From NCBI GenBank assembly GCA_024614665.1, contig GCA_024614665.1_4861.1: 64,000 nucleotides of DNA; one strand, written 5' to 3'. A model generated the notes under the pieces. That model was given only the letters and a program-made list of their open reading frames with translations. It had not been told where the DNA came from and searched no databases. This DNA is from a phage. Each line of letters begins with the position of its first letter. Position 1 is the stretch's first letter. Below, piece after piece: positions 21,897 to 51,060 of this stretch. The position numbers and the translations under genes were made by a program.

Positions 21897-21922
21897 ACCC
21901 TCTTACCCGAAGGTAAGAGGGG
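21897..21922 (-). terminator. UUCG-loop hairpin terminator (identical copy at 49098..49123)
   Basis: CCCTCTTACC-CGAA-GGTAAGAGGG downstream of tmk. Confidence 0.6.
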
Positions 21923-46377: not shown

Positions 46378-46902
46378 TTATTTAGATAAATGACATGCGT
46401 ACAACTGCGTCAGCACTTCGTGCGCAGCAAACTGCGTCGACGTACTGAACGTATCATCCACGACACGAGTCTTGGGACGCATATATTTAAAAAGTTCTGC
46501 GCAGAACATCTTTTTCGCAGCGTGGTCTTCACTTAAAGAAAAACCCGGTCCGGATTTAGCTTCTGCAAAAGACGCCACAACAACATCGCCACGTTGTGAG
46601 AACACCCAACGTAAACGACCGTCGAATGATTCCCCATATAAATCAGCAAGGGTTTCATTCGTACCTTTCTCAACCAGGTTTAAGACCTGGTCATAATAAA
46701 GAGTCGGAAGTGCAGGTGGTGCCATAATCGATTTATAAATCGAAATAGGGTCACTCACTGGCAGTATGATGGAACTAAAGCCCGACGAGCAGTCATATAA
46801 CCAGTTAAAGAAGCTTGCTTGGAGTTCCTCCAACTTTTTAACGCCAGCCCCTTTATCTATGTTAGATTGAACTTCCCACGGTGGACTAAAACGAATTTGC
46901 AT
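46378..46902 (-). CDS. hypothetical protein, about 174 aa
   Basis: ATG at 46900-46902; start only 14 nt from the ATG of the divergent plus-strand gene. Confidence 0.5.
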   Translation of the reverse strand: MQIRFSPPWEVQSNIDKGAGVKKLEELQASFFNWLYDCSSGFSSIILPVSDPISIYKSIMAPPALPTLYYDQVLNLVEKGTNETLADLYGESFDGRLRWVFSQRGDVVVASFAEAKSGPGFSLSEDHAAKKMFCAELFKYMRPKTRVVDDTFSTSTQFAAHEVLTQLYACHLSK

Positions 46903-46916
46903 TTTAAGGATGCTCC

Positions 46917-48479
46917 ATGAATAGTAAAATGATGTTGATAACCGCCTTAGCCGCACTGTATACAGAATCTATGCTGACGGACCCTAGCAAGGATCATGAT
47001 GTCATAAGAAAAGTTCTGATGCAGATCAAGCTTCCGGAATATGCGGAAGATGGCGAAGAGCGCTTTGCACTCATCGAGATCAAGGACATTATCACATCTA
47101 TCATAGACGGCGGCATGGAATACGACCACGCGAGCGTTATGAAGCGCTTGAAGCTGGCCACCACTCAAGTACGTCCTCTATACGATACGATTACCAAATT
47201 CCTCGAAGACGATTTGCCCGAGGAAGAAGACAAACGTACCGAGCATCTTAATCGACAACTGTCTCAATATTATTTCCAATTACGTCAATGTTTACAGAGC
47301 GTCGAACTCAAAACAAAAATGGGTCGCGCGTTCGGAGCATTGAATGGAACTGAGACACGTGTTGATCTGAACACCGCAGTGCTCGAACTCAAAGAGGCGC
47401 TATCTACGTTCGGTGAACGCTCTCATAATAAGATTCCATCACTGGTCGGTGAGCTGGTTACAGATAATCGGGCTCCGTTTGTTAAAGTGTTCGACTCGAT
47501 TAACAAGAAAGCAGCAGGTAATGGTTTGCAGACGGGCTGGAAAGCCATTAACCAAATGCTCGGTTGTAACAAAGGGATTACCGAAGAACTGTGGCTAATG
47601 CCGGCGTTACCTTTTAACTGTAAGTCTTTGTTCAGTCTCTTGCTGAGCTTATCGATTCCTATCTTCAACACGCCTGAGAAAGTAATGGCGGATGTGAAGG
47701 GCACACTGCAACCAATTATTCTTGACTTGAGTTTAGAAAACGAACTCGACGTTAACTTAGCTTACGGCTATCAAGCTCTGTACGGTCATTTTGAAGGACA
47801 AGTTCCACAGATGACCATTTCACAGGATGCAACCGCTGAAGAGAAGTTAGCACACACAACAGCAATGTCTGATTACCTCTGTGGTAAGATTCGCGCAAAC
47901 GGTTGGGACTACGTTTTCCAAAAGCACACCAACTCCGATTTTAAAGTGCACTACATCAACGACCTTATTCTCGACTTACGTCGTCGCGGTTATCATGTTG
48001 TTGGCATTCGCGCAGACTACTTAGGCACAATCAGCAAAGCAGGACACGGCAACGGTATTGCCGGGAGTGATATCAAAGAAATTTATCGTATTGCTCGTAA
48101 CATTCAAGTGGTGCGCAACCGTGGGTTCTTAATTGCCCCACACCAGATTTCCCCAGAAGGTAAGCGCTTAAAAGCGTTAGACCCGGTAGGTTTCTGTAAG
48201 AACTTACCTGGTCGTGGTCTTTACGATAGTTGTTCGAGCCTTGATAACGAGGCCGATGGTGAAATGTATTTTAACAAGCGTGTGGTCAACGGCCATAGCT
48301 TCTTAGAAGTTCAACGCGGTAAGCACCGCACCATTATCGATACTAAAGAATCTTATCACTACACAGTGATACCTTTCCAGGATGTTGGCATCCTGCCTTG
48401 GGATTGTGATAAAGAAGAAACCGTAACAGCGTCGTCTATCAACTTCTTCACCGGTGGAATGGGTGATGATTTGTTCTAA
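46917..48479 (+). CDS. large hypothetical protein, 520 aa
   Basis: Long plus-strand ORF; AAGGA SD 6 nt before ATG; hairpin 48489..48508 after stop. Confidence 0.6.
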   Translation: MNSKMMLITALAALYTESMLTDPSKDHDVIRKVLMQIKLPEYAEDGEERFALIEIKDIITSIIDGGMEYDHASVMKRLKLATTQVRPLYDTITKFLEDDLPEEEDKRTEHLNRQLSQYYFQLRQCLQSVELKTKMGRAFGALNGTETRVDLNTAVLELKEALSTFGERSHNKIPSLVGELVTDNRAPFVKVFDSINKKAAGNGLQTGWKAINQMLGCNKGITEELWLMPALPFNCKSLFSLLLSLSIPIFNTPEKVMADVKGTLQPIILDLSLENELDVNLAYGYQALYGHFEGQVPQMTISQDATAEEKLAHTTAMSDYLCGKIRANGWDYVFQKHTNSDFKVHYINDLILDLRRRGYHVVGIRADYLGTISKAGHGNGIAGSDIKEIYRIARNIQVVRNRGFLIAPHQISPEGKRLKALDPVGFCKNLPGRGLYDSCSSLDNEADGEMYFNKRVVNGHSFLEVQRGKHRTIIDTKESYHYTVIPFQDVGILPWDCDKEETVTASSINFFTGGMGDDLF

Positions 48480-48488
48480 CGAACACTG

Positions 48489-48508
48489 GGGAGCTTAGGC
48501 TCCCCTAC
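48489..48508 (+). terminator. hairpin after plus-strand gene (weak U-tract)
   Basis: GGGGAGC-TTAG-GCTCCCC 10 nt after stop of 46917..48479; no U-run, so possibly leaky. Confidence 0.35.
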
Positions 48509-48571
48509 GGGCAGTTTATGCGTCCTGCCAAGATCAAAAAAAAAATACGACGAACTATTTATATGCATGGA

Positions 48572-48598
48572 ATTACCCGAGTGTTCCAGCACTCGGGT
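48572..48598. terminator. hairpin ACCCGAGTG-TTCCAG-CACTCGGGT
   Basis: Perfect 9-bp stem between the plus gene end and small ORF B; A10 run at 48538..48547. Confidence 0.4.
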
Positions 48599-48613
48599 AA
48601 GAGTTATTTCATG

Positions 48614-48760
48614 TTAACTTTTGTTTAGTAGTATTTCACCTCCTAAACCCTTGATACGACGAACAGTGTTCTGCTTGGGCGCAGTCAACTGTTGTACACG
48701 TTGGTTGAATTGGGTTTGCTTAACGTAATAGTTAAGTATTTGCGAACGTAGTTGTTCCAT
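48614..48760 (-). CDS. small Gln-rich protein, 48 aa (MEQLRSQILNYYVKQTQFNQRVQQLTAPKQNTVRRIKGLGGEILLNKS); paralog of 48873..49019
   Basis: AAGGAGG SD 7 nt before ATG; conserved C-terminal IKGLGG(D/E)I..NK shared with tandem neighbour; absent from ORF track at full-length start. Confidence 0.5.
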   Translation of the reverse strand: MEQLRSQILNYYVKQTQFNQRVQQLTAPKQNTVRRIKGLGGEILLNKS

Positions 48761-48845
48761 GTAGTGCCTCCTTAGGCAGGTTGTTAATATATCGCTGCGC
48801 TGTGGTGGTACACAATGCACCGATATACTGTCACGGGAGTTAAAA

Positions 48846-48866
48846 GGGGTGCTCGAACACCCCTGG
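48846..48866 (-). terminator. hairpin between the two small paralogous ORFs
   Basis: GGGGTG-CTCGAA-CACCCC directly downstream of small ORF A. Confidence 0.45.
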
Positions 48867-48872
48867 TTAGTG

Positions 48873-49019
48873 TTACTTCTTATTGAAGATGATGTCACCT
48901 CCTAGTCCTTTAATGGTACGGGTGGAAGTCTGCGGTTGGCGGGTAACCTCTTGCAGACGTTGTTGAAAAGCGACATGTTTCAGCTGTTGCTGACGCAGTT
49001 GTTGCATAAAGGTATTCAT
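48873..49019 (-). CDS. small Gln-rich protein, 48 aa (MNTFMQQLRQQQLKHVAFQQRLQEVTRQPQTSTRTIKGLGGDIIFNKK); paralog of 48614..48760
   Basis: GAGG SD before ATG at 49017-49019; tandem paralog; not in ORF track (under 60 aa). Confidence 0.5.
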   Translation of the reverse strand: MNTFMQQLRQQQLKHVAFQQRLQEVTRQPQTSTRTIKGLGGDIIFNKK

Positions 49020-49044
49020 GTTAACCTCTAAGTGGATGTGAATA

Positions 49045-49080
49045 AGCTCTCTCCTTCGGGAGAGAGCGCCTTTTATTTTC
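49045..49080 (+). terminator. plus-oriented UUCG hairpin terminator
   Basis: GCTCTCTCC-TTCG-GGAGAGAGC followed on the plus strand by GCCTTTTATTTTCTTTTCGG; faces the minus terminator at 49098..49123. Confidence 0.5.
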
Positions 49081-49097
49081 TTTTCGGAAAATAAATA

Positions 49098-49123
49098 TAA
49101 AACCCTCTTACCCGAAGGTAAGA
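49098..49123 (-). terminator. UUCG-loop hairpin terminator (identical to 21897..21922)
   Basis: CCCTCTTACC-CGAA-GGTAAGAGGG with U-run on the minus strand; downstream of 49133..49993. Confidence 0.6.
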
Positions 49124-49132
49124 GGGATACTA

Positions 49133-49993
49133 CTACGGTTTATAATCAACTTCGTTGATCTTACCGCAAGCCGGACAAGCAATGTTCATTGTCTGCGAAG
49201 TGTAGCGATGTGTTCTCGGTACCGTTGCGACATGATTGCGGTTACAGCCGGAACACGTCCAACCGACCACTGGTGCCTTCGATTGTTTCGGGGCAGGAGT
49301 GTCTTCTTTTAACAATGCGACTACCGCGTGAAATTTACGAAGTTCTGCGTTAACATGCGCTTCCCAGTCGGCGTCCAAACGCGCCGTGAACCAACGTTGA
49401 ATCTTCTGGCCAAGGCCGTCTTGATTTTCTTCTTCATGGGACATCACAAACTTGAGATTTGCGCGACCCCACTGCACAACGTTCTCTACTTTAATCCCGT
49501 CTACGGTGTCGCTGATTGGCGTATAGTTAAAAGTTGGATAGGTGAGATAACAAGCTTCAGCTGTTGCAAAGACCGTATTGCCTTCAAACAGCGCCATGGC
49601 CTCATCGCCCTTAGCATCCTTCTGTGCGGCTTCCAATCGTGGGCAATGGAAACCTTCAAGTTGCTGGATTTTGGTCGTTAGCGCATTGATACCCTGCAGC
49701 ACAGCGATACGCTTTTTGCTGTCTGTAATGGTTGCCATTACCTTGCACAACGCGCGCGAGATAGCGCTATACATTGACGTTTTGCGGTTTTCATCGAGGA
49801 AACGCTCTTGCTGCTCCAGGTCGTAAGAAGACAGGCCGTAGCTCTGCCCTTCGACCAACACGACGTAAGTACGACGTTTGTCGCGGTCCAGCTGGACAAT
49901 GGCCGCATCGGTTAACGGATCGCTAGCCAATACTTCGTGGTCGGGAGGTAGGGGGAAATCTGAACTTTTGATGAAATCAGTAATGCTGTACAT
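49133..49993 (-). CDS. hypothetical protein with C-terminal zinc ribbon, 286 aa
   Basis: CSGCNRNH ... CPACG near C-terminus; hairpin terminator 49098..49123. Confidence 0.55.
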   Translation of the reverse strand: MYSITDFIKSSDFPLPPDHEVLASDPLTDAAIVQLDRDKRRTYVVLVEGQSYGLSSYDLEQQERFLDENRKTSMYSAISRALCKVMATITDSKKRIAVLQGINALTTKIQQLEGFHCPRLEAAQKDAKGDEAMALFEGNTVFATAEACYLTYPTFNYTPISDTVDGIKVENVVQWGRANLKFVMSHEEENQDGLGQKIQRWFTARLDADWEAHVNAELRKFHAVVALLKEDTPAPKQSKAPVVGWTCSGCNRNHVATVPRTHRYTSQTMNIACPACGKINEVDYKP

Positions 49994-51034: not shown

Positions 51035-51060
51035 ATCACCTAGGTAATATATATCTGAAA
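51035..51060 (-). promoter_or_regulatory. class-1 promoter-like motif
   Basis: Plus-strand ATCACCTAGGTAATATATATCTGAAA; upstream of small membrane gene. Confidence 0.55.

Follow-up and report, generated by a model that had tools for sequence, protein, structure and literature searches.

Two small basic proteins encoded in a hairpin-rich island of SPN3US-related jumbo phages

The closest described counterparts of the genes analyzed here are gp71 and gp72 of Salmonella phage SPN3US, a virulent, nucleus-forming, 240-kb phiKZ-like jumbo phage with its own RNA polymerases. We analyzed a 64,000-nucleotide stretch of phage DNA (contig GCA_024614665.1_4861.1, referred to below as the window) in which a hairpin-rich island of 650 bp, located between a gene for a DnaB-like replicative helicase and the equivalent of SPN3US gp70, contains two tandem 48-codon genes on the minus strand, copy A and copy B (Table 1). 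The window belongs to a Seoulvirus jumbo phage: around the island, ~1 kb of DNA matches Proteus phage 7 at 99.6% identity and SPN3US at 99.2%, both of which are Seoulvirus members. The proteins encoded by copies A and B have sequences identical to those of gp71 and gp72 and lie at the same position, such that the two pairs belong to the same gene family with no difference between them. Other points of reference are the small phage proteins that bind host machinery, such as T7 Gp2, T4 Stp and T4 AsiA, the arginine-rich or beta-hairpin RNA-binding peptides of the lambda N-boxB and BIV Tat-TAR systems, and the moron cassettes of lambdoid phages, which are autonomous small genes with transcription signals of their own on their flanks.

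A first-pass annotation of the window described the two genes as missed and could not place them in any family, but neither statement holds. The genes are already known: they have been in the SPN3US annotation since 2011, they are annotated as hypothetical proteins in GenBank/RefSeq for SPN3US and its relatives, including Proteus phage 7, SPLA5c, MET_P1_082_240 and others, and they merely fall under the 60-aa threshold of the open reading frame (ORF) listing that was used. Both are full-length members of PHROG 18219 (E ~1e-27), which is catalogued with no assigned function. Jumbo phages carry many small hypothetical genes, and finding these two is in itself of little weight. What our analysis adds is firm evidence of purifying selection on the coding sequence, something that cannot be taken for granted with ORFs of 48 codons; a predicted domain plan in which a variable helix is joined to an invariant GLGG beta-hairpin in a strongly basic protein; the recognition of an accessory cassette, insulated by terminators, that is confined to a single clade of enterobacterial jumbo phages of the Chimalliviridae type; and a clear natural example of paralog collapse via recombination across a 10-nt conserved coding motif.

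Coding status, distribution and history of the two genes

The first-pass annotation proposed two minus-strand ORFs of 48 codons with good Shine-Dalgarno (SD) sites, tandem paralogs with a common C-terminal motif, separated by a hairpin within a hairpin-rich island. Coordinates and translations are exactly as proposed, the motif R-x-IKGLGG(D/E)I is present in both copies, the similarity between the copies is well beyond chance (47% identity; BLASTP E=1e-12), a hairpin (H3, described below) lies between them, and positions 48000..49600 contain 8 terminator-like sites versus 1.6 expected. At the position of the copy A SD, a purine-rich GAGG or GGAG element is present in 16 of 16 aligned genomes.

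That annotation had also set a test of coding status, namely whether the reading frames are conserved in related genomes and whether synonymous sites are less conserved than nonsynonymous ones, and the genes passed on both counts. All 21 homologs compared, which come from three phage genera, keep the annotated frame open, and every other frame contains stops in most of them. The ratio of nonsynonymous to synonymous substitutions (dN/dS, Nei-Gojobori method) is 0.08-0.40 in all informative pairs; against orthologs, it is 0.27-0.40 for copy A and 0.25-0.35 for copy B. Between copies A and B, synonymous sites are saturated (synonymous divergence, pS, 0.80; nonsynonymous divergence, pN, 0.39). Column entropy at codon positions 1, 2 and 3 is 0.84, 0.62 and 1.32 bits overall and 0.47, 0.16 and 1.19 bits in the 13 conserved C-terminal codons that contain the motif, within which third positions vary (GGA/GGG, GGT/GGC/GGA/GGG and CTA/TTA). 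Together, these data show that both small genes are protein-coding and under purifying selection. An SD-like sequence within the motif, AGGAGGTGA, was considered as a conserved functional signal and rejected: third positions vary, and Erwinia phages have GGGGGTGA at this site, indicating that AGGAGGTGA is a by-product of the GLGG codons. A scan of positions 48000..49600 against Rfam at E<=1 gave no match other than chance microRNA-like matches on palindromic hairpins. The ORF tool also reported a 94-aa ORF with a GTG start (48614..48898, minus strand), which is copy B extended upstream from a GTG within copy A and which we did not take as a gene. This ORF starts at the GTG of AGGAGGTGA, with the spacer between A and B being stop-free in the frame of B, and is probably meaningless, as the SD overlaps its GTG.

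The PHROG 18219 hidden Markov model (HMM; 48 positions) matched copy A over positions 1-48 of 48 (E=1.2e-27), copy B (E=6.8e-27) and the homolog from phage Machina (E=8.3e-30). Homologs, all of 47-49 aa, share a map position in Seoulvirus, in STsAS/SPAsTU, in Erwinia phage pEa_SNUABM_29, in Machinavirus (Machina, Huxley, Parshik, pEa_SNUABM_6/10/42/43 and pSal-SNUABM-04), in Wellingtonvirus (pEa_SNUABM_11) and in several metagenomic contigs. Identity among them falls to ~40%, with M1, Q20, R21, G38-L39-G40-G41, I43 and K47 invariant. Gene order, which the first-pass annotation had suggested comparing across related phages, is identical in at least 15 genomes or contigs, with the small gene always the last before the convergent helicase gene and always after the terminator of the gp66-gp70 operon.

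When 1.84e9 representative proteins were searched exhaustively with an HMM, three 50%-identity clusters were recovered, corresponding to the Seoulvirus, Machinavirus and Wellingtonvirus types; three further matches were long Q-rich proteins and were discarded as spurious. A single-sequence search of a 5.8e9-protein database returned close relatives only, a profile search added the Erwinia and Wellington types and nothing beyond the clade, and IMG/VR contributed only 3 further loci. Nothing significant was found in Pfam, NCBIfam or PDB sequence profiles, where the best matches were coiled-coil noise and uL29 at E ~1. The family is therefore limited to SPN3US-related enterobacterial jumbo phages (Seoulvirus, Machinavirus and Wellingtonvirus). 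The small gene is absent from Erwinia phage phiEaH2 (Erskinevirus), in which the flanks are kept, with the terminator of the gp70 homolog abutting the conserved block of the helicase 3' end. This absence indicates that the gene is accessory and that H2, the SD, the ORF and H4 make up a discrete ~300-bp cassette that is dispensable as a unit.

Copy number varies within Seoulvirus. EC001, Lh1B, SEGD1, JN03, SaP7, 1252 and most SPFM phages have a single gene, in which an exact 259-bp deletion with its junction in the shared TAGGAGGTGA (the 10-nt GLGG codons) yields a protein with the N-terminus of A and the C-terminus of B. In phage 1252, the C-terminus and the downstream hairpin are identical to those of copy B in the window, and the C-terminus in EC001 matches copy B of SPLA5c. 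The two-copy state has collapsed to an A/B chimera by recombination across TAGGAGGTGA, and these sequence matches suggest that it did so at least twice independently, or once with later exchange. Such collapse explains why Seoulvirus genomes differ by one gene at this locus. In STsAS, SPAsTU and related contigs, the leader is of the A type and the only gene that follows it is B-like; pS is 0.80 between A and B versus 0.40 between B and the STsAS gene. By this comparison, either the duplication would be older than the STsAS split or A would have evolved faster, a choice that ~31 synonymous sites cannot resolve. EC001 also has an 11-bp insertion, TATTTGCATGG, between the stop codon of the chimeric gene and H4, relative to the window, SPLA5c and 1252.

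Hairpins and expression of the small genes

The island contains five or six conserved stem-loops, and 4 of the ~30 distinct perfect stems of at least 8 bp in the window fall within its 650 bp. Hairpins with a UUCG/CGAA tetraloop and a 9-11-bp stem are the ordinary terminator type of this phage, with ~14 in the window. On the minus strand, the stop codon of gp70 is followed by H1, a T-tract, an AT-rich palindrome, H2, ~25 nt that include the SD, copy A, H3 and TTTT; then come an 84-nt spacer ending in an SD, copy B, H4, CATA, T10, a GGCAG..CTGCC stem, H5 and the stop codon of the convergent helicase gene. The hairpins sit between the ORFs and none lies inside one. As folded with RNAfold, the hairpin order is identical in every genus (with one ORF), and the stem sequences differ.

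Across 16 genomes, H1 has compensatory changes at 7 of its 10 pairs, with 96% of cells paired and no variation in the cUUCGg loop. An identical copy of its 24-nt hairpin, CCCTCTTACCCGAAGGTAAGAGGG (49103..49126), is located 27 kb away at 21898..21921; these twin terminators are a possible recombination substrate or a possible sign of terminator spread. Because the AT-rich palindrome occurs only once in the window, we rejected it as a general promoter. The simplest reading is that it consists of the T-tracts of H1 and H2, which face each other because the two terminators stand back to back and act on minus- and plus-strand transcription, respectively. RNAfold placed a hairpin at the H2 position in every genome, with stems that differ in sequence and a covariation count that is partial, limited by alignment register.

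For H4 and H3 taken together, 8 of 11 pairs are compensatory, 94% are paired, and the three apical pairs (G-C, U-A and G-C) are invariant in 17 of 17 sequences, including the hairpin of copy A. H3 is thus homologous to H4, and the duplicated unit consists of an ORF together with its 3' hairpin. The hexaloop of H4 (apex 48581..48592) is found in both orientations on identical stems, reading TTACAG in Huxley and pEa10 versus CTGTAA in pEa43, and a further reverse-complement pair is formed by CTCGAA in pEa6 versus TTCGAG in H3 of the window, with the GTG/CAC apex remaining invariant. Such loop-flip inversions between inverted repeats indicate that the H4 loop carries no strand-specific information, and their occurrence among close relatives weakens loop-specific recognition of H4 as a candidate.

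A Rho-independent terminator is defined by a GC-rich stem-loop that covaries and leads directly into a T-tract on the transcribed strand. By this definition, H1 qualifies for minus-strand and H2 for plus-strand transcription; H3 has TTTT only, and H4 and H5 lack an adjacent T-tract. On the plus strand past the helicase gene, H5 has no T-tract and the first hairpin followed by one is H2, ~570 nt farther on, so helicase transcripts may run antisense over the small genes. The sequence TATG at 48562..48565 on the plus strand (CATA on the gene strand), just past H4 and pointing into the small genes, is near-invariant across genera, with the C of CATA present in at least 90% and A-T-A in 90-100% of sequences. 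TATG is the core of phiKZ late (non-virion RNA polymerase) promoters (PMC7598289), and by analogy this copy could start an antisense RNA ending at H2, although four bases are too few to conclude.

A scan for sigma-70-like promoters found none, in keeping with transcription by RNA polymerases of the phage itself; phiKZ-like phages transcribe with their own enzymes, and an AT-rich phage-specific motif near -10 marks their early, virion RNA polymerase promoters (PMC7598289). A k-mer screen of the window identified a recurrent minus-strand 17-mer, TTTCAGATATATATTAC, in five perfect and four degenerate copies. Each copy is followed by a conserved leader (yTAGGTGAGA...AATCGACyATTA...AAGGAG-N6-8-ATG), and most lie just downstream of a UUCG-tetraloop terminator. 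By analogy with the phiKZ motif, TTTCAGATATATATTAC is probably an SPN3US-type early (virion RNA polymerase) promoter, with the leader as a conserved 5' untranslated region. The copy nearest to the island heads the gp66-gp70 operon, which ends at H1, and no copy was found upstream of A or B even with up to 4 mismatches allowed. The small genes would therefore be expressed either by read-through or processing of the gp66-gp70 operon or from an unrecognized promoter. We favor the former, in which they would be transcribed from the upstream, probably early, operon and a short mRNA would be protected by H2 as its 5' stem and by H3 or H4 as its 3' stem.

Predicted structure and function of the small proteins

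All family members are hydrophilic and very basic (grand average of hydropathy, GRAVY, -0.7 to -1.0; pI 10.6-12.0; net charge +5 to +9), and have no signal peptide, hydrophobic stretch or transmembrane segment. A type I toxin or small membrane peptide is not supported, since the defining hydrophobic transmembrane segment is missing. AlphaFold2 (AF2) monomer models from two independent runs that targeted A and B, respectively, both contain a helix at residues 2-26, a low-confidence basic linker with a conserved Pro, and a C-terminal beta-hairpin with strands at 34/35-38 and 41-44/45 and the invariant GLGG as its turn. The mean predicted local distance difference test score is 68 for A and 73 for B, with values of 82-90 in the helix and ~57 in the hairpin. 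The predicted product is a helix of ~25 residues joined by a flexible basic linker to a GLGG-turn beta-hairpin. Among homologs, it is mostly the helix that varies, and the conserved parts are the hairpin and Q20-R21. Profile and structure comparisons detected no known fold or sequence homolog. With a size of 5.6 kDa and no hydrophobic core of its own, the protein is not expected to be an enzyme and would act by binding or oligomerizing.

We propose that the small protein is a non-virion accessory binding factor produced from a hairpin-bracketed mini-cistron at the tail of a probable early operon and that it most likely binds nucleic acid, and we give this proposal a probability of roughly 0.55. 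The conserved beta-hairpin and the invariant Q20-R21 would form a common docking surface, which would most likely contact RNA or DNA or, as the alternative, a protein of the host or the phage, and the fast-evolving helix would tune specificity, which could explain why two diverged copies can be kept. We favor a nucleic acid target on account of the protein's charge, its invariant Q-R and the Lys/Arg residues on either side of the hairpin. The non-virion assignment is consistent with the lack of any mention of gp71 or gp72 in the texts and supplements of mass spectrometry reports on SPN3US virions and proheads (PMC5105663, PMC7411985, PMC10052503), an absence from the literature rather than the result of a direct experiment. 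Among the papers searched, none mentions SPN3US gp71 or gp72, and a literature text search for TATATTAC was uninformative.

Several points weigh against this proposal. Basic charge alone is no proof of nucleic acid binding, and absence from virion protein lists is weak evidence for a protein of 5.6 kDa. The confidence of the AF2 models is moderate and they describe monomers only, such that the protein could form an oligomer or fold upon binding. We infer both the promoter class and read-through or processing; H1 looks like an efficient terminator, and the small genes may have their own unrecognized middle or late promoter. The first-pass annotation expected small regulators or anti-host factors, roles that would fit the accessory distribution, unstable copy number and basic charge of the family. 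Should binding to RNA or to the helicase transcript prove true, the family would add a new small regulator to a group of phages in which little is known about gene regulation, and because SPN3US is genetically tractable, the question of function is testable.

The main rival, to which we give a modest chance, is that the protein serves in anti-defence or host takeover, docking through beta-strand addition not on nucleic acid but on a specific host protein, for example a defence nuclease, an RNase or a polymerase subunit, with the paralogs targeting variant host alleles. In support, the gene is an accessory one that three genera have and Erskinevirus lacks, its copy number is unstable, its N-terminal two thirds evolve fast next to a fixed C-terminal hairpin, and it lies at the tail of a small-gene block with a probable early promoter, as is typical of host-takeover genes. 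However, the docking motif is invariant even though the hosts range over Salmonella, E. coli, Proteus and Erwinia, dN/dS values of <0.4 give no sign of positive selection, and a lead from T4 Stp failed, with the N-terminal likeness of MNNFVNHL to MSNFHNEH of Stp receiving an hhalign probability of 0.4%.

A more specific arrangement, which we consider unlikely, is that the gene and its 3' hairpin form a self-contained protein-RNA module of a new kind, in which the protein would bind the invariant GUG-N6-CAC apex found after each gene copy and control the stability or termination of its own mini-mRNA. As the cassette is located within the 3' untranslated and terminator zone of the convergent helicase gene, the protein could also act on the overlapping antisense helicase transcript, for which H2 is the first terminator with a T-tract. 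If true, the module would represent a small regulator not described before, autoregulatory or antisense-coupled, that acts on the expression of replication genes in jumbo phages that form a nucleus.

It is quite unlikely that the product is a small basic protein of the virion or the head interior that serves to condense DNA or leaves the head by ejection together with it. In favor are the strongly basic character of the protein, the position of the small genes only ~1.9 kb from the genes for gp74 and the major capsid protein, and the many internal proteins of SPN3US heads (PMC7411985), but gp71 and gp72 do not appear in the virion and prohead reports cited above even though detectable tryptic peptides are expected from each, phiEaH2 lacks the gene despite a common head architecture, and the helicase gene, on the opposite strand, separates the small genes from the capsid genes.

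We regard as very unlikely a peptide precursor cut after GG (GLGG followed by D/E-I-I-F-N-K-R), whether of the double-glycine leader or arbitrium type, or a ubiquitin- or Pup-like GG tag. The GG is invariant, is followed by an acidic residue and lies 7 residues from the C-terminus of a protein of a size like that of peptide precursors. Yet there is no signal peptide or hydrophobic segment (GRAVY ~-0.9) and no Pfam match, conservation is equally strong on both sides of GG, which forms part of a beta-turn in the AF2 models, the only neighbors are gp70 and the helicase, with no adjacent peptidase, transporter or receptor gene, and a virulent phage makes no lysis-lysogeny decision. Finally, the possibility that RNA or DNA structure is the conserved signal and the ORFs are incidental, which draws on the unusual richness of the island in covarying hairpins and on the SD-like sequence spelled by the GLGG codons, is effectively refuted by the dN/dS, frame and entropy data: third codon positions are the most variable, motif included, dN/dS is well below 1, the frame is open throughout, and the hairpins lie outside the ORFs and have no Rfam match.

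Neighboring genes and comparison with known systems

The gene upstream of the island, gp70, is essential and non-virion in SPN3US (Thomas et al., PMC5105663). Residues ~243-282 of gp70 contain a C-terminal zinc-ribbon-like CxxC...CxxC segment (WTCSGCNRNH...IACPACGKINE), and the protein has weak PHROG matches to a 'translational regulator' (phrog_6417, E=0.002) and to 'Lar-like restriction alleviation' (E=0.17); in Machinavirus, two shorter genes (238 and 130 aa) occupy the equivalent position. On the other side, the helicase gene stands on the opposite strand between the island and the genes for gp74 and the major capsid protein. The gp74-like gene (minus strand) and the helicase gene (plus strand) diverge from start codons that are only ~14 bp apart (46902..46917), indicating that each promoter lies within the coding sequence of the other gene or that transcription comes from farther upstream.

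Table 1. Coordinates of the small genes, hairpins, repeats and flanking genes in the window
Feature	Position	Strand	Basis
Copy A, 48 aa, MNTFMQQLRQQQLKHVAFQQRLQEVTRQPQTSTRTIKGLGGDIIFNKK, identical to SPN3US_0071 (gp71, YP_009153365) / ACQ60_gp195	48873..49019	-	ORF; 100% tblastn match
Copy B, 48 aa, MEQLRSQILNYYVKQTQFNQRVQQLTAPKQNTVRRIKGLGGEILLNKS, identical to SPN3US_0072 (gp72, YP_009153366) / ACQ60_gp194	48614..48760	-	ORF; 100% tblastn match
SD of copy A, GAGG, 5 nt before ATG	49025..49028	-	Read from sequence
SD of copy B, AAGGAGG, 6 nt before ATG	48767..48773	-	Read from sequence; kept in two-copy Seoulvirus genomes
H1, intrinsic terminator of the gp66-gp70 operon; 10-bp stem and UUCG loop at 49103..49126, then T-tract	49088..49126	-	Terminator scan
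AT-rich palindrome TTTATTTTC-N6-GAAAATAAA, perfect, 9-bp	49068..49095		Sequence conserved across three genera; unique in window
H2, 9-bp stem-loop; 5'-proximal stem of the small-gene mRNA on the gene strand, hairpin plus T-tract on the plus strand	49046..49067		Terminator scan
H3, 7-bp stem-loop after copy A, then TTTT on the gene strand	48845..48864		Aligns with H4; common invariant GTG-N6-CAC apex
H4, 11-bp stem-loop directly after copy B; cassette 3' hairpin	48573..48600		Covariation
Conserved block at helicase 3' end: T10 (48536..48545), 5-bp stem GGCAG..CTGCC (48510..48529), H5 (48488..48505)	48488..48545		Conserved across genera; kept in phiEaH2; H5 also from the terminator scan
TTTCAGATATATATTAC, perfect copies	5' ends 2698, 21840, 23335, 51060, 59563	-	k-mer screen
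TTTCAGATATATATTAC, degenerate copies	5' ends 6791, 15527, 43183, 43988	-	k-mer screen
TTTCAGATATATATTAC, copy nearest to the island, heads the gp66-gp70 operon ending at H1	51044..51060	-	One of the five perfect copies
DnaB-like replicative helicase, SPN3US gp73 (SPN3US_0073), the 520-aa plus-strand gene	46917..48479	+	Annotation; PF20307 divDNAB in homologous contigs
gp70 (SPN3US_0070), 286 aa, upstream gene, last before terminator H1	49133..49993	-	Annotation; PHROG 10180

As a mechanistic analogy only, the small genes recall lambda N-boxB and BIV Tat-TAR in that a small basic peptide is encoded beside a conserved RNA hairpin with an invariant apex, GUG-N6-CAC, and that gene and hairpin were duplicated together as a unit. 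Unlike in those systems, the motif here is not arginine-rich, the loop flips argue against loop-specific recognition, and there is no downstream gene to antiterminate, as the next gene is convergent. With T7 Gp2, T4 Stp and T4 AsiA, the small proteins share small size, a lack of enzymatic potential, a probable early-operon context and a lineage-restricted distribution. In contrast to lambdoid morons, the cassette resides in a virulent, nucleus-forming jumbo phage with its own RNA polymerases, in which there is no lysogen for expression, and no recognizable promoter was found inside it. Like those morons, however, it is a unit, here the ~300-bp H2-SD-ORF-H4 segment, that is present or absent between conserved flanks and is insulated by terminators on both sides.

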